38,869 nucleotides of DNA from a virus. Of this stretch, positions 5,755 to 37,877 are shown piece by piece. A program made the translations under genes and the position numbers. The notes under the pieces were generated by a model. The model was given only the letters and a program-made list of their open reading frames with translations. It was not told where the DNA came from and did not search any database. Numbering within the stretch: the stretch's first letter is position 1; every line of letters begins with the position of its first letter. The stretch is from UHGV virus genome UHGV-1367882. The stretch is one strand, 5' to 3'.

Positions 5755-5780
5755 CCCCTGCTTCGGCAGGGGATTTTTTA
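5755..5780 (+). terminator. Rho-independent terminator after the YHYH gene
   Basis: cccctgc-ttcg-gcagggg followed by atttttta. Confidence 0.75.
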
Positions 5781-6581
5781 TGCCGTCGCCTGATCGTGCT
5801 GTGTCCCAAGCAAAGATTCAATATGCCGGGCAATAGCTGCGTTTTCTGCCTCAATGGAACTTATCAATTCCTTTGCATCTGCTATTTTCAAAGCGTTTTT
5901 ATTGAGTTTGCGCTTGAGCCTATCGGCTTCTTTCTTGGTTTGGGCATTTGGCTTTGTCTCGCGGGAATATCTGGCTTCAGCTTTTTTTACAGCTTCGTTC
6001 ACACACTGCCGGGACACTCCAAGCGCTTCGCCGATTCCCTTAAATGTCATTCCCCGCTTGCGGAGTTCTATATACAATGCGGTTTTATCGGATACGTTAT
6101 CAATGTCTATGTCCGCGACCGAATCCCGAATCTTCGCTATTCTATTCAGCCTGGCGGCAGCTCTCTTTAATTCGTGCTTACACACAGCGCAAAGGCCGTC
6201 TTTTGCGGTTGTAGGATAATTGCATCTCTTACACGGCACGGCGTTGGCATACGGATTTATAAGGCCCGTTCGATAAGCGTGGCTGGCGTTTTCCGACCTT
6301 GTTACCCACTCCAAATTTTCAACCCGGTTGTTTGCGGGGTTCCCGTCGATGTGATTGACTTCGGGCTTATCATCCGGATTTGGTATAAACGCCTCGGCGA
6401 TAAGACGATGCACATAGAAATTCCTTTGTTTTCCATCTATCATGGCAGATACGACCCGATACCTTCCGTTGCGTCCCGTTTTAGCCTGTACGGCCAGCTC
6501 CTTTTTTCCGTCATTGATTCGGTATACTTCGCCGATGTCGTTTACCTCGAACAGGCCGTTTTCAATGATGGCGGTTTTCAT
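5778..6581 (-). CDS. HNH homing-type endonuclease (NUMOD4 / HNH_3) with C-terminal sigma-70 region-4-like HTH
   Basis: NHIDGNPANNRVENLEWVTRSEN (HNH_3). CKRCNYP...CAVCK is a zinc-ribbon-like segment. TALYIELRKRGMTFKGIGEALGVSRQCV is an HTH. Confidence 0.75.
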   Translation of the reverse strand: MKTAIIENGLFEVNDIGEVYRINDGKKELAVQAKTGRNGRYRVVSAMIDGKQRNFYVHRLIAEAFIPNPDDKPEVNHIDGNPANNRVENLEWVTRSENASHAYRTGLINPYANAVPCKRCNYPTTAKDGLCAVCKHELKRAAARLNRIAKIRDSVADIDIDNVSDKTALYIELRKRGMTFKGIGEALGVSRQCVNEAVKKAEARYSRETKPNAQTKKEADRLKRKLNKNALKIADAKELISSIEAENAAIARHIESLLGTQHDQATA

Positions 6582-9470: not shown

Positions 9471-10025
9471 ATGGCTAATATTTTTGATTTTGCTAATTTC
9501 TTTATTGATTTGTCTTTGCACAACGAAGAAGATCCTATGACAAATCTGCGCCTTAACAAACTTCTTTATTTTGCTCAAGGGTGCAGCTTTGCCAAAAGAG
9601 GCGTTCCGCTTTTTTGTGAGGATTTCCGGGCGTGGAAATTTGGCCCCGTTGTGCCTGTCGTCTATCATGAGTTTAAAAAATACGAGGCAAATCCTATTGA
9701 CAAAGTTGTCGGCACATATAGCCCGTCTGTTTTTTCTGAAGATGAATTCGATATATTGCTGAATGTCGCAAATGAATATGGCAAATACACCTCTCCAACG
9801 CTAGTCGATATATCTCATATCCCCCAGGGGCCGTGGGATATTGCATATCGTCATTGCGTTGAAAGCGTAATACCAAAAAGTGACATAAAGGAGTATTTTC
9901 AGACTAATTCGTGCAGTTCACGTTTTAATTCACATAGAGATTCTATTCAAACAATTTATGGAAGGCGAGATAAAGACGGTTATCTTGTGCTTCCTAAAGA
10001 GTTAGGCAGTGACTGGGCCCTGTAA
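9471..10025 (+). CDS. Panacea-domain (DUF4065; SocA/GepA-like) antitoxin
   Basis: FANFFIDLS...MTNLRLNKLLYFAQGCSFAKRGVPLFCEDFRAWKFGPVVPVVYHEFKKY is the DUF4065 signature. Confidence 0.75.
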   Translation: MANIFDFANFFIDLSLHNEEDPMTNLRLNKLLYFAQGCSFAKRGVPLFCEDFRAWKFGPVVPVVYHEFKKYEANPIDKVVGTYSPSVFSEDEFDILLNVANEYGKYTSPTLVDISHIPQGPWDIAYRHCVESVIPKSDIKEYFQTNSCSSRFNSHRDSIQTIYGRRDKDGYLVLPKELGSDWAL

Positions 10026-10323
10026 AAAGTGGGAAGTGTGGCTGGCTAACCTAAGGGTTGAAGATTCAGATGAAGTTAAACAACGCCCTGTGGTTATATT
10101 AGAACACAATATAGTCGCTGTATTAGCTTTGAAAGTAACCAGTCATGAACCTCGCCACAATTTTGCTGGTGAATATAGCCTAAAATACTGGAAAGAAGCC
10201 GGGTTGCACAGACCGTCAACTGTTAGAACTTCTCAAAGGCTTCACTTGTTAGAAAACGACCTAAATAGAAAATTAGGTTGTTTACACGCATCGGACATTC
10301 TTCAAATACTTAAATATTTATAG
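10009..10323 (+). CDS. MazF/PemK-fold toxin (PanT-like partner of the Panacea antitoxin)
   Basis: WEVWLANLRVEDSDEVKQRPVVILEHN...IVAVLALKVTSH matches the MazF pattern GxIWxVxL...RPVLVI...VVPxTS. It overlaps the upstream gene by 17 nt. GTG start. Confidence 0.6.
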   Translation: MTGPCKKWEVWLANLRVEDSDEVKQRPVVILEHNIVAVLALKVTSHEPRHNFAGEYSLKYWKEAGLHRPSTVRTSQRLHLLENDLNRKLGCLHASDILQILKYL

Positions 10324-32207: not shown

Positions 32208-32603
32208 TCAATCGGGAAGCTGATCCTCTCCCTTGATGACGACCGGGAGAGCGCCGGTCAACTCCGCCTCGATCCTATCCCTGTATTTGTGGTTGTTTTT
32301 CAGCAGAAATTGCACCATGTGGAAGTCGTTTGTCATGCCATATTCAGCTTGTGAAGCGGCAATTTCGTCATACGCGCGCGAGATCATCCCACATATTGTA
32401 TGTGTATTCTCCCGCATCTCCTCGTCACAGTCTCCGCCATTCGGCTCGCCTCTGGCGTATCTTATAACCGTTTCACGATCCACGCCCAGCGCAACGGCCA
32501 AACGCTCTACGGTCATTGCAACCTTGTGATCCTGTGCCCATTGCCTCGCCTGGCTAATAGCTTCCTCTACTGCAACCGGGTCTGTTAGCTTAGGTCTTGC
32601 CAT
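32208..32603 (-). CDS. terS: Terminase small subunit (YqaS / Terminase_2-like)
   Basis: N-terminal HTH AMTVERLAVALGVDRETVIRYARGE. C-terminal FLLKNNHKYRDRIEAE resembles the conserved FWLKNRxPDKWRD tail of this family. ATG at 32603 (MARPKL). Confidence 0.55.
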   Translation of the reverse strand: MARPKLTDPVAVEEAISQARQWAQDHKVAMTVERLAVALGVDRETVIRYARGEPNGGDCDEEMRENTHTICGMISRAYDEIAASQAEYGMTNDFHMVQFLLKNNHKYRDRIEAELTGALPVVIKGEDQLPD

Positions 32604-32735
32604 ATAATCACCCCTGCATACAGCATAACACACTATATATAGTCTACTTCAAGTCAACCATCACCGATTTTATACAATATTTTGTGATGCAAAAAAATAA
32701 GCCCCAAACGGGGCAAAAAAATTTGAAAATGGGGG

Positions 32736-32764
32736 TTGACATAACGCTACCGTCATGTTATAGT
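32736..32764 (+). promoter_or_regulatory. Near-consensus sigma-70 promoter with extended -10 (TTGACA-17-TGtTATAGT)
   Basis: Read directly from the sequence. It is divergent from terS and drives the plus-strand accessory island. Confidence 0.7.
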
Positions 32765-32819
32765 ATAAGCGTAGCAAGGGGCAGCGCCACCATCCTGACA
32801 AGGATTGGAGGTGGTGCCG

Positions 32820-32903
32820 ATGGGTAAGCAAATAGTGCGATACATAATATGCGTGCTTACATTGCTTGTCCTCGCTGTACTGTTTTGCTTTCGGGCAAAA
32901 TAA
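32820..32903 (+). CDS. Candidate 27-aa hydrophobic leader peptide
   Basis: RBS GGAGGTGG then ATG. Product MGKQIVRYIICVLTLLVLAVLFCFRAK. It is immediately followed by a hairpin. Confidence 0.3.
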   Translation: MGKQIVRYIICVLTLLVLAVLFCFRAK

Positions 32904-32905
32904 AA

Positions 32906-32936
32906 GATCGCTAGCCTATTGCGCAGGCTAACGATC
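32906..32936 (+). promoter_or_regulatory. 12-bp-stem hairpin / imperfect palindrome (gatcgctagcct-attgcgc-aggctaacgatc)
   Basis: 11 of 12 positions pair. There is no U-tract. It lies between the leader peptide and the RHH gene. Confidence 0.4.
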
Positions 32937-33001
32937 AAGCAGCAAGCAACACTCACAGCAGGTGCTGCCTCTTGTCTACACTATAACAGATTAAGGAGGC
33001 G

Positions 33002-33193
33002 ATGTCAACGGGGAAAGTGTCGTACACAGTCAGGAAAAGGTATGAGGATAAAACGTATAAACAGATCGCCTTCCGAGTGCCTATTGACCTGGCGAAAAGA
33101 TTCCGCGAAGTTACCCACATGCGCGGAGACAGTCAAGCGCAGATCTTAAAAGAGGCAATCGAAGAGTATCTGCAAAAGGCTAAAAGAGAATGA
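33002..33193 (+). CDS. Ribbon-helix-helix (CopG/Arc-like) protein, 63 aa
   Basis: RBS AAGGAGG. IAFRVPIDLAKRFREVTHMRGDSQAQILKEAIEEYL is an RHH fold signature. Confidence 0.55.
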   Translation: MSTGKVSYTVRKRYEDKTYKQIAFRVPIDLAKRFREVTHMRGDSQAQILKEAIEEYLQKAKRE

Positions 33194-33432
33194 GCTGTCA
33201 TATCGGCTATACGGGGAGAAAGGGGCTATTATGAAAAGAATAAGCGTGGATAATGGAATGCACTGGGTATCGCCTGAAACGGCGCTAGAAACAATAGATA
33301 TAGACACTATGGCCGTATACATGGACGATGACACCCGCGAAGCAGTTCACCACGATATTGCCCCGTGCACAGATGCGGAATTTGTCGCCGAATATCTGCG
33401 CCGGGCTCCAGATGATCTGATTATCGGATAAA
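33194..33432 (+). repeat. 239-bp direct repeat, copy A (~96% identical to 34229..34467)
   Basis: Alignment by eye shows ~10 mismatches over 239 bp, including the RBS and the whole 66-aa ORF. Confidence 0.8.
33231..33431 (+). CDS. Small acidic protein, 66 aa (paralog A)
   Basis: MKRISVDNGMHWVSPETALETIDIDTMAVYMDDDTREAVHHDIAPCTDAEFVAEYLRRAPDDLIIG. No recognised domain. Confidence 0.5.
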   Translation: MKRISVDNGMHWVSPETALETIDIDTMAVYMDDDTREAVHHDIAPCTDAEFVAEYLRRAPDDLIIG

Positions 33433-33620
33433 GTGGAAGAGCTTATCCGGAAAGGCATCCAAAAAAACAACCCCTGAACGCTGCTCTAGTTTGGAGACCG
33501 GACAGCGCACAGGGGCGACCACCAACAATCAAAGACTGTCGGGGCGTCATTATTATAAACCATTCACGCCCTGGCTGTCAATGCCGGGGCGTTTTTGCGC
33601 CCCAAGAAAGGGGCAAGATT

Positions 33621-34193
33621 ATGATAAACGATAAAATGAAGCAAAGTGCGTTGAAGGACGAATACAGGAAACTACTGGCTTCCGATGTTTGGCCAACATC
33701 TCAAAAAATGGTTGACTATTGTATCAAAAACGCCGCCCGCATCGTGGAACTTGAAGGCGGCGGGTTAGTGGCCATTGAAAAGCCGCGTATGCAAAAGCGC
33801 TTTTGTTTCGGATATTCATTGAATGGCCATGATAGCGACGACTTTGACCGCGCTAACGAAATGGCGGCTTACGCCGAGAAGAGCACAGACTATTTTATTA
33901 AGACCAACATGAAACAAATAGTTGATGCAATCAAAGATTTGCACGGTGATCACGTCTATGTCGGTGTGAAATATTATACTAGCCCGGAGGATTCGCGAGT
34001 TCAAAATGTTGTGTACTTAAACTATTGGGATACCCCACGGCAAGGTTTAAAGCCTATATCTGACAATGACCGCCGCGCGATGATTGAAGCATGGAAGATT
34101 GTCGGGCGTGACTTCCGTCGTAAAATTGATACCTATCTCAAGCGATATGGATTGTCAAAGGTACAGACATGGAGTTATTGGCAGGATGAATGA
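33621..34193 (+). CDS. Unrecognised 190-aa protein flanked by the duplicated 66-aa genes
   Basis: RBS AAAGGGG. No motif recognised. Trp/Tyr-rich C-terminal half. Confidence 0.5.
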   Translation: MINDKMKQSALKDEYRKLLASDVWPTSQKMVDYCIKNAARIVELEGGGLVAIEKPRMQKRFCFGYSLNGHDSDDFDRANEMAAYAEKSTDYFIKTNMKQIVDAIKDLHGDHVYVGVKYYTSPEDSRVQNVVYLNYWDTPRQGLKPISDNDRRAMIEAWKIVGRDFRRKIDTYLKRYGLSKVQTWSYWQDE

Positions 34194-34228
34194 ATAGGTT
34201 GACTTAAACCGGAATTCGAATAATATCG

Positions 34229-34467
34229 GCTGTCCTATCGGCTATACGGGGAGAAAGGGGCTATTATGAAAAGAATAAGCGTGGATAATGGAATGCACTG
34301 GGTATCGCCCGAAACGGCACTAGGAACAATAGATATAGACACCATGGCTGTATACATGGACGATGACACCCGCGAAGCGGTACACCATGATATTGCCCCG
34401 TGCACAGATGCGGAATTTGTCGCCGAATATCTGCACCGGGCTCCAGATGATCTAATTATCGGATAAA
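34229..34467 (+). repeat. 239-bp direct repeat, copy B
   Basis: See copy A. The differences include two amino-acid changes (E20G, R57H). The rest are silent. Confidence 0.8.
34266..34466 (+). CDS. Small acidic protein, 66 aa (paralog B)
   Basis: 64 of 66 residues identical to paralog A. Confidence 0.5.
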   Translation: MKRISVDNGMHWVSPETALGTIDIDTMAVYMDDDTREAVHHDIAPCTDAEFVAEYLHRAPDDLIIG

Positions 34468-34481
34468 TCGAAATAGCAAAA

Positions 34482-34515
34482 GGGAGGGGATAACCCCTCC
34501 CTTACTGCATTTTTT
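34482..34515. terminator. Bidirectional terminator hairpin (gggagggg-ataa-cccctccc plus T-run)
   Basis: 8-bp GC stem. ttactgcatttttt on the plus side. T-rich sequence on the minus side after the arpU-like stop. Confidence 0.6.
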
Positions 34516-34843
34516 CGGTTAGTGCATCCAGCGCCATGTTATGGAGCTTATAGGCCCATTGCCGTGATTTGCCTATTGTACGGATGATCACCGGCCATTT
34601 GAGGCACCGCAAGTATCTCTGTGTAAGGACGGAGGCCAAACGCGGCGGAAGATCAGCCGATTTTAACCGCTCGTATACCTCAATACGCGCCGCTGCTTCA
34701 GCGGCCTGTAGCTCTTTCAAACGCTGCTCATACATGCCTGCGTTTTCCGGCCCACTGTCCTTCCGTGCCTGTGTGAGCTCTTCTACTTGCCTATGATATT
34801 CCAGGGGACGGCTAATCCACGTTTTCACTTCTTGTCGGGTCAT
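34502..34843 (-). CDS. Late-gene transcriptional activator candidate (ArpU / RinA / DUF1492-like, sigma-70 region-4-like)
   Basis: LPPRLASVLTQRYLRCLKWPVIIRTIGKSRQWAYKLHNMALDALTEKM. RBS GGAGGG 6 nt before ATG at 34843. It lies upstream of the packaging genes. Confidence 0.5.
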   Translation of the reverse strand: MTRQEVKTWISRPLEYHRQVEELTQARKDSGPENAGMYEQRLKELQAAEAAARIEVYERLKSADLPPRLASVLTQRYLRCLKWPVIIRTIGKSRQWAYKLHNMALDALTEKMQ

Positions 34844-35186
34844 GTCTGTCCCTCCATCCGATAATTCCCACGGATACGGCAAGGCAGCGGTCTAGTGTTA
34901 TCATTTCTTTTTCGGCTAGGCTTCCCAATAGGCAGCCTAGTTCTTTTTTTTCGATCGTCTCCATCCTGTCACATAATGCACGAATCTTTTGCCCGCGCAA
35001 GGATATATCAAATTGCATGGGATACTTAACTTTAATTGATGGGATTATAAGAGGGACAACGATGACACGGGGAAAGTATGTATTGCTCGTATTGTTTTGG
35101 ATGATCAACGCTTTTTTGGGGCACGGAATTGGATCATCTTCCGGCCATTCCGCCCAAGGGTAAGCATAGATTTCGCCCTTTTTCAT
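34812..35186 (-). CDS. MazF/PemK-family toxin-fold protein (124 aa)
   Basis: KGEIYAYPW...KKALIIQNNTSNTYFPRVIVVPLI...DISLRGQKIRALCDRMETIEKKELGCLLGSLAEKEMITLDRCLAVSVG aligns by eye along the whole MazF/EndoA length. Confidence 0.6.
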   Translation of the reverse strand: MKKGEIYAYPWAEWPEDDPIPCPKKALIIQNNTSNTYFPRVIVVPLIIPSIKVKYPMQFDISLRGQKIRALCDRMETIEKKELGCLLGSLAEKEMITLDRCLAVSVGIIGWRDRHDPTRSENVD

Positions 35187-35548
35187 ACTGCTCCTTTCTG
35201 CTGCGCGCGCGGCGTATAGATGCGGTTGTCTGTACGTTTTTCGGCTTTTCTGACCTCACCCAGCAGCTTTTCAAGCCCGCGGATTACCGCCCTGTTGGAT
35301 TCTATCCAGGTCAATATAGGGAGTGTTTCGCTCAACGTGTCTTTTGCTGCCCGGCGTTGCTGACGTACCTTTTTCAGCTCTTTCGACAACTTGGCGTATT
35401 CGTGGTAGTTATGTTCTTGTAGTTCAAGGCTGTGCAGGATATCTTGCGTCATATCGTTAGCTTCCTGTTCGGAAGCTTCTGCTATATAGTATTGTTGTTC
35501 TGTTCCCCGGAGAAAAGCCAGGAATGTATCAATTCCTTCGCTTACCAT
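35183..35548 (-). CDS. Hypothetical protein (~121 aa), ATGA-coupled upstream partner of the MazF-like gene
   Basis: RBS GGAGG then ATG at 35548. It is helical and charged. It has no MazE/AbrB or RHH motif. Confidence 0.45.
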   Translation of the reverse strand: MVSEGIDTFLAFLRGTEQQYYIAEASEQEANDMTQDILHSLELQEHNYHEYAKLSKELKKVRQQRRAAKDTLSETLPILTWIESNRAVIRGLEKLLGEVRKAEKRTDNRIYTPRAQQKGAV

Positions 35549-35705
35549 TTGGTATGCCTCCATTCCCCTTTGCAAGGCCCTGATTTCCCTTGCGCTTGTC
35601 CGAGGCGACTTGTATCAGGCACCCGATCATCAGCCCCAAGCAGGCCGACAGGGACGCCGTGGCGGCCAGCATCAGTGCAACAGCTCCAAAGGTGATGGTA
35701 ATCAT
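35529..35705 (-). CDS. Small membrane protein (58 aa)
   Basis: AAGGAGGAGGG RBS. Product MITITFGAVALMLAATASLSACLGLMIGCLIQVASDKRKG... Confidence 0.3.
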   Translation of the reverse strand: MITITFGAVALMLAATASLSACLGLMIGCLIQVASDKRKGNQGLAKGNGGIPNGKRRN

Positions 35706-35863
35706 ATGTCGCCCTCCTCCTTGGCCACCGGCATACATCTATCCGCTATTTCCGCCGCACAAGCAGCATACCCGGCTAGGTCGATATAGTTGTCGGCTTT
35801 GTAGCGTCCTGGCCTAACGCGGGCCTTCCTAAGTCGCTTAATCAGATCATCGTTATTCATCAT
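35702..35863 (-). CDS. Small basic protein (53 aa)
   Basis: AGGAGGG RBS then ATGATG at 35863. The longer track ORF overlaps Lar in another frame. Confidence 0.3.
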   Translation of the reverse strand: MMNNDDLIKRLRKARVRPGRYKADNYIDLAGYAACAAEIADRCMPVAKEEGDI

Positions 35864-36041
35864 CCGCCCTCCTGTTCCAGGCTTCGATTGCTTTCGCCAG
35901 GTTATAATAACTGTCACTTGAGAATCCGCATCCATGGCACCAAATAAAACCAGTTTCTGTATTTTCCATTTGTTGCTCATAGTCTAGGGTAAATGCAACA
36001 TTCTCACTCCCGCAAAACGGGCACGGTTTCAGTTCATTCAC
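35853..36041 (-). CDS. Lar-family restriction alleviation protein (zinc finger)
   Basis: CPFCGSENV...WCHGCGFSS. 62 aa. Confidence 0.6.
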   Translation of the reverse strand: MNELKPCPFCGSENVAFTLDYEQQMENTETGFIWCHGCGFSSDSYYNLAKAIEAWNRRADDE

Positions 36042-36900: not shown

Positions 36901-37077
36901 TCATCGGTTTTCGTGTATTTTCATAATAGATTCCCTAAATGATTTATTGTTTGATGATACGGTGTCCAGCGCCTCTCGCGCCAGCTGCAACGCCTGGATA
37001 TACTCTCGCGGCGCCCCTCCCGCTCTCGCGGCGTCGATGATCTCCGCCAGGTAGGACAGGGCTTCTGTGTCGTTCAT
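36901..37077 (-). CDS. Small protein (58 aa), ATGA-coupled to the methyltransferase gene
   Basis: RBS GGAGGCG 5 nt before the ATG. Not in the ORF track. Confidence 0.35.
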   Translation of the reverse strand: MNDTEALSYLAEIIDAARAGGAPREYIQALQLAREALDTVSSNNKSFRESIMKIHENR

Positions 37078-37877
37078 GGTTTCGCCTCCTTTATTGCCTT
37101 AAAGATTGGATAAAATTGTGCCGGCACTACAGCGTTGCCTAAACATCTAACTCGGTCCACCCGATGGGAAATCCCATGAGCCACTCTATCCACATTGGGT
37201 TCAGTTGGCCACCAACATCCGTGCGCAAAGAGCGGGAATTCCCGCCGCCCGTCGTCCCTTGGCTGTCTGACGCTGTCGGCGTTGTCCATAATCTGGCTGC
37301 CTGTATTAATCTCATTGCATGTTTTGTCCCTGTAAACTCCTTGCTCTCCAAGTCCCCGCACGTTGCGTCGAACGCTGTCACGGTAGGCCACAATCGCACA
37401 TCTGTCCCGCCTATGCGGGGCATCGACGGCACAAGCCGGTATAATAAACGCTTGGCAGGCGTAGCCGATACCTTCCAGGTCAGATAGCACCTGGTCGAGC
37501 GCCATACTGACGATCCCAGCAACATTCTCACCAACGACCCAAGCGGGCCTGAGATCTTGCACAACTCTAAGCATTTCAGGCCACAGGTAACGGTCATCTG
37601 CCTTGCCTCGTCGCTTCCCGGCGACGGAAAACGGCTGGCAGGGGAATCCTCCGGATATAACGTCAACTGTTCGTAGTCCTGTCCGCTCATAAAAAACCTC
37701 CTTTGTCAGCGTCCGTATATCCCTCCATCGCGGTACATCTGGCCAATGCTTTTCCAGCACCTTTGTGGGGTAATCCGCCCACTCACATTGACCGACAGTG
37801 TGGAACCCCGCACTTTCCGCGGCGAGATCCAGTCCTCCTATCCCTGTAAACAGGGATAGGTGAGTTAATATATCCAT
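37074..37877 (-). CDS. dcm: DNA (cytosine-5)-methyltransferase, orphan (no partner endonuclease)
   Basis: Motif I LSLFTGIGGLDLA. Motif IV GGFPCQPFSVAGK. Motif VI VGENVAGI. Motif X RCLGNAVVP. The short (267 aa) length implies a compact target-recognition domain. Confidence 0.85.
   Translation of the reverse strand: MDILTHLSLFTGIGGLDLAAESAGFHTVGQCEWADYPTKVLEKHWPDVPRWRDIRTLTKEVFYERTGLRTVDVISGGFPCQPFSVAGKRRGKADDRYLWPEMLRVVQDLRPAWVVGENVAGIVSMALDQVLSDLEGIGYACQAFIIPACAVDAPHRRDRCAIVAYRDSVRRNVRGLGEQGVYRDKTCNEINTGSQIMDNADSVRQPRDDGRREFPLFAHGCWWPTEPNVDRVAHGISHRVDRVRCLGNAVVPAQFYPIFKAIKEAKP

Follow-up and report, generated by a model that had tools for sequence, protein, structure and literature searches.

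A probable RHH-controlled anti-CRISPR locus with predicted RNA-level control in the temperate phage genome UHGV-1367882

The phage genome UHGV-1367882 (38,869 nucleotides, nt; hereafter the window, meaning this whole stretch) carries a small accessory island between its terS gene and a regulator gene, at positions 32,736 to 34,515. A preliminary description of the island, made from the letters alone, had listed a promoter, a hydrophobic peptide gene, a hairpin, a ribbon-helix-helix (RHH) regulator, two nearly identical proteins of 66 amino acids (aa), a 190-aa protein and a terminator, all of which were found at their positions. From profile searches, fold predictions and the comparison with related loci, the island is probably an anti-CRISPR or anti-defence locus of a temperate phage that is controlled by the RHH protein, with further predicted control at the RNA level. 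Our confidence in the type of locus is good and in the RNA layers moderate, and for any single function assigned to the peptide or to the 190-aa protein it is low to moderate.

AcrIC5-family proteins and the RHH regulator

Profile searches show that both acidic 66-aa proteins belong to the AcrIC5 family of type I-C anti-CRISPR (Acr) proteins. Both lie above the Pfam threshold for PF22147 (Table 1), which is also carried by 61 of 64 database homologues, and the family profile matches AcrIC5 in PDB entry 7yhr with E = 9e-4. An AlphaFold2 model of the protein (pLDDT 93.9, four helices) likewise led to 7yhr as best PDB match in Foldseek, but the match is weak (E = 0.35, TM 0.50/0.55) and on its own not significant. 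The two copies are identical in 64 of 66 aa, differ at 10 nt within the open reading frame (ORF), have a pI of 4.3 and a net charge of -10, and are held in a 249-nt direct repeat (33194-33442 and 34229-34477, 94% identical). The earlier statement that these proteins contain no known domain is thus superseded, whereas the accompanying guess of an Acr/Aca-like locus with DNA mimics was right for the 66-aa proteins (PF22147, pI 4.3) and for the RHH protein (RHH_1 match and promoter dyad, see below). The family itself is already known, and an anti-CRISPR role would be presumed for this host as well. AcrIC5 inhibits type I-C systems in vivo and blocks DNA binding by the type I-C complex, with orthologues in Firmicutes and Actinobacteria (PMC7913775), and a homologue from a Bifidobacterium prophage also inhibits type I-C in vivo (PMC10651486). 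Another study presents AcrIC5 as acidic and as binding the DNA site (PMC10478522), and an AlphaFold 3 prediction sets it at the protospacer adjacent motif (PAM) site of Cas8c (bioRxiv 10.1101/2025.06.06.658234). An RNA anti-CRISPR (Racr) beside the Acr genes was not supported: the sole match to a CRISPR repeat, RF01370, reached 16.2 bits where 39 is the cut-off (E = 4.6), and no type I-C-like repeat was found downstream of either 66-aa copy. An AcrIC5-like gene that is 45% identical was also seen unannotated in the cultured Bacillus phage Mgbh1 (L159, KU665491.1 5566-5766), where this gp12 lies ~1.7 kb upstream of the terminase genes gp13 and gp14 and could serve as a tractable test case.

The CopG-type RHH protein passes the Pfam cut-off for RHH_1, also matches PHROG CopG/Arc-like repressors and is basic (pI 9.9). 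Its gene precedes that of Acr copy A by 38 nt, both being on the plus strand, with a like arrangement in the sister variants L103, L001 and L146, and stays constant while the cargo differs among sister phages. The plus-strand promoter P1, a strong one of sigma-70 type and alike in position and strength in the related loci L001, L154, L162, L165, L171 and L175, holds an inverted repeat in its spacer. In RHH relatives of 42-94% identity, this dyad is a perfect or near-perfect palindrome at a kept promoter position, with changed central bases. It is perfect in L154 (central bases ACGTT/AACGT), L162 (CCGTT/AACGG), L165 (CTGC/GCAG), L171 (CCG/CGG) and L175 (CTACA/TGTAG), each with its own central sequence. 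When the dyads were aligned, 82% of the cells were complementary compared to 17-51% with the partner column slid, and both sides had changed in five of nine pairs (alignment across 7 loci). Scanning the window for the dyad pattern gave no second exact match and one other, unconvincing site with 3 mismatches. Covariation of this kind is the signature expected of a repressor site, and from the co-varying dyad in the P1 spacer we read the RHH protein as a putative Aca-like autorepressor of P1. An RHH-type Aca protein that controls an acr promoter, Aca14 (WP_005725436.1), has been described (PMC13551039).

Promoters with at least 11 of 12 matches were found three times, one on the plus and two on the minus strand, compared to ~0.05 expected (3.6 kb, both strands), and are therefore not due to chance. 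P2, which is convergent with P1, is kept in L001 (11/12), L153 (12/12), L154 (10/12), L162 (12/12) and L165 (10/12); P3 has 12/12 matches with a 17-nt spacer in L001, and its sequence is also present in L146. The island had been taken for a single plus-strand unit. Its genes are indeed all on the plus strand, but owing to the two strong internal minus-strand promoters (33008-32980 and 33581-33552) it is not simply one plus-strand operon.

Table 1. Features of the island and its flanks in the window (SD, Shine-Dalgarno sequence; sRNA, small RNA).
Feature	Position	Strand	Remarks
terS (gp3-type)	32208-32633	-	Pfam/PHROG match; flanks island
Minus-strand terminator	32701-32714	-	short GC hairpin then T-run (terminator scan); kept in L001
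Promoter P1	32736-32764	+	TTGACA-17-TG-TATAGT; 11/12 matches, extended -10 (promoter scan)
Dyad	32740-32757		CATAACGCT/ACCGTCATG, 18 bp, CATA-N10-TATG; in P1 spacer; putative operator of RHH repressor
27-aa hydrophobic peptide gene	32820-32903	+	MGKQIVRYIICVLTLLVLAVLFCFRAK; GGAGG SD 8 nt upstream
Predicted antisense sRNA1, ~78 nt	32896-32973	-	5' stem-loop, terminator hairpin, U-run
Hairpin, 12-13 bp	32906-32936	-	terminator of sRNA1; T-run TTTTATTTTG on minus strand only
Promoter P2	32980-33008	-	TTGACA-17-TG-TATAGT; over RHH start codon, convergent with P1
RHH (CopG-type) protein, 63 aa	33002-33193	+	Pfam RHH_1, 22.9 bits (cut-off 20.5)
AcrIC5-family copy A, 66 aa	33231-33431	+	PF22147, 29.9 bits (cut-off 27); upstream of attenuator-like leader
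85-nt segment	33433-33517		unique to window mosaic, absent from L103 and L001; holds sRNA2 terminator hairpin
Predicted antisense sRNA2, ~90 nt	33455-33545	-	conserved 5' stem-loop, terminator, U-run; fold z = -4.6
Cargo-slot leader, four segments	33539-33604	+	alternative pairings 1:2, 2:3, 3:4 (fold prediction)
Promoter P3	33552-33581	-	TTGACA-18-TATAAT; 12/12
190-aa protein gene	33621-34193	+	large uncharacterised phage family
AcrIC5-family copy B, 66 aa	34266-34466	+	PF22147, 29.4 bits (cut-off 27); E20G, R57H relative to copy A
Bidirectional terminator hairpin	34480-34503	both	10 bp, GC-rich; scored as terminator both ways
PHROG "transcriptional regulator" gene	34502-34882	-	other flank of island
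MazF/PemK-like gene	34812-35186	-	adjoins island beyond regulator

Hydrophobic peptide gene and convergent antisense RNA

According to fold prediction, the SD of the 27-aa hydrophobic peptide gene is sequestered in a 5' hairpin, and an ~18-bp long-range 5'-3' stem (32775-32788 with 32961-32974) encloses the ORF. At these same two segments the first transcribed bases of P1 and P2, CAAGGGGCAGCGCC and CAAGAGGCAGCACC, are near-identical, so that the predicted antisense RNA resembles the mRNA at its 5' end, and the two would vie for one and the same 3' partner; this pairing is also kept in L154. The antisense transcript sRNA1, predicted to start from P2 (fold z = -3.5), would run across the 3' end of the peptide ORF as well as the 5' untranslated region of the RHH gene. 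In its terminator hairpin every plus-strand mismatch is a C-A that corresponds to a G-U on the minus strand; as the hairpin is fully paired and followed by a T-run only on the minus strand, the terminator would work in the predicted minus-strand RNA. An exact-pattern scan for this hairpin matched only the sister contig.

To what extent this layout is kept can be seen in L154, whose RHH protein is 71% identical. It shows the same arrangement in another sequence, with a plus-strand promoter of 12/12 matches, a minus-strand promoter over the RHH start and a 12-bp hairpin followed by the same T-run, in a two-hairpin fold as in sRNA1; between the two loci the hairpin has 5 compensatory pairs. The peptide ORF of L154 again comprises 27 codons, at 56% nt and 46% aa identity. 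Differences from the window ORF are distributed over the codon positions as 15/7/15, fewest at the second, the other frames are closed by stops, and purifying selection on the small hydrophobic ORF was found in this comparison. Other short hydrophobic ORFs occur at the same position in L162, L153, L165, L171 and L172. Two further observations concern other versions of the module. In the distant ones of L165 (255-275) and L171 (2791-2811) a 5-codon mini-ORF (MKKEG) just upstream of a 21-aa hydrophobic ORF overlaps the ribosome-binding site of the latter, which suggests translational coupling or control. L153 (1-1481) contains three tandem units of a minus-strand terminator hairpin, a small RHH-type gene and a minus-strand promoter over a gene start; a 20-aa hydrophobic ORF (MEYIIIILAIMLMMIVVIKN) belongs to one unit or more, and the whole amounts to an array of such head modules.

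The preliminary description had combined a leader peptide with a hairpin. Both elements are present, but with the hairpin as minus-strand terminator a peptide gene with a convergent antisense RNA fits better. A plus-strand attenuator of a leader peptide was rejected because there is no plus-strand U-run and the mismatches are C-A on that strand. Peptide gene and convergent predicted antisense RNA appear to form a conserved module whose architecture resembles that of toxin-antitoxin (TA) systems of type I. Like those of Firmicutes prophages (Bacillus txpA/RatA and bsrG/SR4; the C. difficile phiCD630 modules), it combines a hydrophobic ORF of less than 35 aa and a prophage location with a structured mRNA, a sequestered SD and a convergent antisense RNA over the 3' end, the last three being predicted here.

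This resemblance leads to the first alternative, in which the core of the island would be a type I TA-like addiction or stabilisation module, with the peptide as membrane toxin, sRNA1 as antitoxin and the RHH protein as repressor of the toxin promoter, and with the Acr and 190-aa genes as passengers on this promoter. That length and hydrophobicity of the peptide are kept while the DNA diverges speaks for it, as do the sequestered SD, the closing stem around the ORF and the convergent promoter and terminator kept with compensatory changes. In addition, L165, L167, L169 and L171 carry the module without any cargo after the RHH gene, promoter and peptide ORF being found upstream in L165 and L171, and type I TA systems are known from clostridial prophages (PMC7699646). 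In the Rfam search of 32500-34700, however, nothing came near a gathering score and no described toxin or antitoxin RNA family was matched (Pfam and NCBIfam do not cover these), and there is no family-level similarity to the prophage systems named above. It is also atypical that no plus-strand terminator follows the peptide ORF, so that the "toxin" mRNA continues into the RHH gene, and type I TA systems are not known to have a protein repressor as partner, whereas this module contains a putative one. We regard this alternative as a serious one, though short of an even chance; it is compatible with an anti-CRISPR locus and does not exclude it.

Cargo slot, leader and the 190-aa protein

Comparison with the sister contigs (95-99% identical) reveals a cargo slot that reaches from the RHH gene to the last Acr gene and is empty or holds either the 190-aa gene or two unrelated small genes. 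The RHH gene is followed by one Acr gene in L103 and L160, by the 190-aa and Acr genes in L001, L083 and L143-L145, by genes for a 100-aa and a 72-aa protein and Acr in L146 and L147, and by Acr, 190-aa and Acr genes in the window. The swap points of the cargo are precise, just past an SD (aaaggggca) and at ccggaattcgaataatat. The 100-aa and 72-aa proteins of L146 and L147 had no Pfam match; as observed in L146 (1684-2197), the former is Cys-rich (MMKLNCMCKDCLCLGKSC...), and by their position in the same slot both are anti-defence candidates.

The window itself is shown by this comparison to be a mosaic of a single-Acr variant and a 190-aa plus Acr variant, which accounts for its two Acr alleles. 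Its left arm, which includes Acr copy A, shares 99.3% identity with contig CECA01070263.1 of the single-Acr kind and its right arm ~97% with the 190-aa plus Acr type, and the differences between copies A and B (10 nt, 2 aa) equal the distance between the lineages. A recent tandem duplication of the Acr gene in situ was rejected, given this between-lineage divergence and the match of the arms to two different phage types. The idea that the 66-aa copies bracket the 190-aa gene as a functional unit falls with this result, since the arrangement stems from the junction of two phage lineages. The co-occurrence survey that had been proposed for the trio pointed the same way, as 190-aa and AcrIC5-like genes were found together only in close relatives of this phage. 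A fixed three-gene system was rejected: the respective other gene is present in 0 of ~98 other 190-family loci and in 0 of 39 AcrIC5-like loci, and a second AcrIC5-like copy was equally found in 0 of 39.

Upstream of the cargo, the leader is predicted to fold in two ways. An antiterminator 1:2 (33539-33548 with 33567-33576, -20.8 kcal/mol) forms together with 3:4, whereas the alternative 2:3 hairpin is followed by UUUUU (-21 kcal/mol) and is forced when segment 1 is blocked in folding. The 5' end of the predicted sRNA2 is complementary to segment 1. L001 keeps P3 and the first ~28 nt of sRNA2 with a different terminator hairpin (z = -4.35), and the leader is kept upstream of different cargo in L001 and L146. 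By analogy to countertranscript plasmids, the logic of this leader suggests attenuation driven by a countertranscript. Through the mosaic junction, Acr copy A has come to lie before the leader and copy B after it.

For the 190-aa protein, the earlier finding of no known domain holds, as searches against Pfam, PHROG, NCBIfam, PADLOC and PDB gave no match and a confident model (pLDDT 95.7) matched no fold. A profile search led to at least 1,137 family clusters at 50% identity, from phages and prophages of gut Clostridia, Treponema, Prevotellaceae, Bacteroidales and Akkermansia. Among cultured phages only Corynebacterium phage PSonyx matched, and a search of plasmids gave no match. Conserved motifs of the family are IEKPxIxxxFCFGY and YLKRYGLSKVxxWSYWxD. 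About one third of the members have a ~75-aa N-terminal extension that is weakly DUF5710-like and matches a PHROG annotated as primase, and two homologues, P0301 and P0319, carry an N-terminal ArdA domain (E about 8e-11). The P0301 fusion was confirmed as a single ORF with a C-terminus 36% identical to the 190-aa protein; in the window protein itself no ArdA domain was found with Pfam. Neighbours of family members are variable small genes of unknown function as well as recurrent divergent RHH/HTH (helix-turn-helix) regulators, opposite-strand gp3-type terS and an AP2-domain protein; in the P0009 loci the family gene opens a long operon of early type that diverges from an RHH gene. The terS-proximal accessory slot of the preliminary description is supported, since in other phages homologues of both the 190-aa and the 66-aa genes are found in slots of this kind or close to them. 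We regard the 190-aa protein as a candidate anti-defence effector, most probably one aimed at a non-CRISPR system. The N-terminal ArdA domain of the two homologues is typical of multi-domain counter-defence proteins, in which this anti-restriction domain is found in polyvalent or fused form; the 190-aa protein of the window lacks ArdA and is not similar to described anti-defence folds.

Two other roles were considered for this protein. Expressed in the lysogen, it could be a prophage defence or superinfection-exclusion factor, in agreement with its moron-like gene behind sigma-70 promoters here and in several relatives and with the temperate, integrase-carrying phage; a terS-proximal slot is also a known site for such cargo. 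We nevertheless consider this unlikely, as there is no PADLOC match, the gene shares its operon with anti-CRISPR genes, two homologues are fused to the anti-restriction domain ArdA, and family genes stand first in early-type operons. Even less probable is a housekeeping early protein, such as a DNA/RNA-binding or replication accessory factor, placed in the slot by chance: the protein is basic and strongly conserved, with Arg, Lys, Tyr and Trp conserved in the C-terminal motif YLKRYGLSKVxxWSYW, and its long forms share the N-terminal domain with the PHROG annotated as primase, but it is dispensable, being absent or replaced in sister phages of 95-99% identity, and shows no HUH/Rep, primase or other enzymatic fold. 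An HUH Rep protein in particular, suggested by a YxxxY motif and the CopG/antisense layout, was rejected because of the missing conserved His motif, the absence of a Rep fold or Pfam match and the dispensability of the gene.

Model, related systems and setting of the locus

In the mechanism that we propose, P1 would be active on entry of the phage and, weakly, in the lysogen too. As acidic DNA mimics, the AcrIC5-like proteins would bind the type I Cascade at the PAM-recognition and DNA-binding surface of Cas8c and thereby block target binding. An RHH dimer on the dyad would throttle P1, as Aca proteins do, and sRNA1 from P2 would pair with the peptide/RHH mRNA. Pairing of sRNA2 from P3 with leader segment 1 would favour the 2:3 terminator, so that fewer transcripts reach the 190-aa gene and copy B of the Acr gene, whereas copy A, before the leader through the mosaic junction, would escape this control. 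The 190-aa protein would act as a second anti-defence effector against a non-CRISPR system.

Judged by its sequence, the locus is of the acr-aca type, an already known kind with a known Acr family. With acr-aca operons (AcrIC5 PF22147 of Pseudomonas delhiensis, PDB 7yhr; RHH-type Aca14) it shares a small acidic Acr next to a small DNA-binding regulator, a strong promoter with an inverted repeat, cargo that varies round a constant regulator and the prophage location; the likeness to Aca14 is one of protein class and of position in an acr operon. It differs in having the regulator first and the Acr last, in an Acr only 21% identical to the tested AcrIC5, and in the addition of two predicted antisense RNAs and an attenuator-like leader, layers for which no report at acr loci was found in the literature searched. 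As predicted, these layers recall countertranscript plasmids, in which a small repressor acts alongside a short antisense RNA whose promoter lies within the leader of the gene under control, with alternative terminator/antiterminator hairpins and convergent promoters. Examples are pMV158 with CopG and RNAII and pIP501 with CopR and RNAIII; Anti-Q of prgQ/prgX in pCF10 is control of the same type (PMC3181467). Those systems, however, control replication or conjugation genes and not anti-defence cargo, and they show no sequence similarity to the island (the CopA-like Rfam match reached 17.7 bits against a cut-off of 60). What is new here is the control architecture, i.e. the head module of peptide, antisense RNA and RHH protein together with the countertranscript and attenuator-like leader, and the 190-aa family as cargo. 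That the small ORF encodes a signal-peptide-like pro-peptide, whose secreted product gates the cargo through a bistable switch of the prgQ/prgX type, is very improbable: although ORFs of 20-31 aa resemble signal peptides (e.g. MKTLIKVSILVSFLLASVAAN) and convergent promoters, a predicted short antisense RNA and a terminator/antiterminator leader are exactly the elements used by pCF10 (PMC3181467), the island has no RRNPP-type peptide receptor, RHH proteins have no known peptide-binding capacity, the peptides are not conserved at the C-terminus where the mature pheromone would lie, and no processing or export genes are nearby.

Several points weigh against the island as an RHH-controlled anti-CRISPR locus with RNA-level control. 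In RHH relatives of 42-51% identity, peptide and RHH genes occur as a module alone, without cargo, so that the RHH protein may mainly serve this module and not the acr genes. The similarity to the tested Pseudomonas AcrIC5 is remote at 21% identity, and the target subtype in this host could differ. The U-tract of the attenuator has only 5 U, and only near-identical sequences are available for it, which leaves no covariation. Finally, with its basic pI of 8.7, its large size and its good conservation the 190-aa protein departs from most Acrs; it has no conserved partner, and nothing links it to a particular defence.

As to the setting, the island had been described as self-contained and flanked by genes of opposite strand. 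Both statements stand: the minus-strand terminator (32701-32714) lies on one side and the bidirectional terminator (34480-34503), which closes both the island and the convergent regulator gene according to the terminator scan, on the other, and terS and the regulator gene are both on the minus strand. The former terminator is predicted to shield terS from antisense transcription that exits the island. The window in its entirety represents the genome of a temperate phage, with genes for an integrase, an amidase endolysin, RecT/YqaJ and a C5 methylase; the annotation of a sister contig also contains terminase and portal. The host is likely Candidatus Avimonas narfia of the gut Clostridia. A 97% identical copy of the 190-aa gene is found in a metagenome-assembled genome (CAJFNR01) of this bacterium. 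The island DNA had no match among cultured phages, and against the PADLOC defence models its proteins gave a sole, chance-level match to Cas2 (E = 0.025).

Outside the island, further genes of possible interest were observed. A second PemK/MazF-like gene (124 aa, Pfam E = 7e-10) directly adjoins the island (within 34812-35575, minus strand), preceded by an overlapping 130-aa gene of PHROG 2717 that could be its antitoxin, and both are kept in all sister contigs. The other one (104 aa, E = 6e-9) lies beside the integrase (9471-10323, plus strand) and is overlapped by a few codons by a SocA/Panacea-domain gene (184 aa, Pfam E = 5e-23), which resembles a pair of PanA-type antitoxin and MazF toxin. 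A restriction-alleviation ORF of the Lar type (62 aa, E = 5e-13) and a DUF6378 ORF overlap in different frames (35702-36041, minus strand); as L001 has a single 89-aa Lar gene, this overlap may be a frameshift. Together with a C5 cytosine methylase gene (37074-37877, minus strand), Lar represents further anti-restriction functions near the island. An HNH endonuclease gene (HNH_3, E = 2e-14; 5778-6581, minus strand) is opposite to its plus-strand neighbours in the lysogeny region.

A bolder reading has two parts, and we put it forward tentatively, as possible but doubtful in its entirety. Hydrophobic peptide, convergent antisense RNA and RHH protein with its co-evolving operator would form a new, conserved three-part control module, which could be a toxin module under hybrid control by RNA and protein or a new kind of switch for the timing of anti-defence expression; in this phage a countertranscript attenuator would be added to it as the gate of a slot for swappable cargo. 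The 190-aa protein would be the founder of a large (at least 1,137 clusters) gut-phage anti-defence family whose fold is new and whose members are in some cases fused to ArdA.

Type I-B and I-C systems are common in gut Clostridia, for which, to our knowledge, few Acrs are known. Should the 66-aa proteins be active, a phage of these bacteria would carry an inhibitor of the AcrIC5 family together with an RHH regulator. Known control of acr genes is by HTH Aca proteins or, since 2026, by the RHH-type Aca14, and control by antisense RNA and attenuation would add a new regulatory layer for acr loci. The 190-aa family, large, confined to phages and prophages of gut bacteria, without detectable fold relatives and located in the cargo slot of an acr locus, is a strong anti-defence candidate by guilt-by-association, and the head module of peptide and RHH genes, with its recognisable promoter dyad, may be used as a handle to find further loci.

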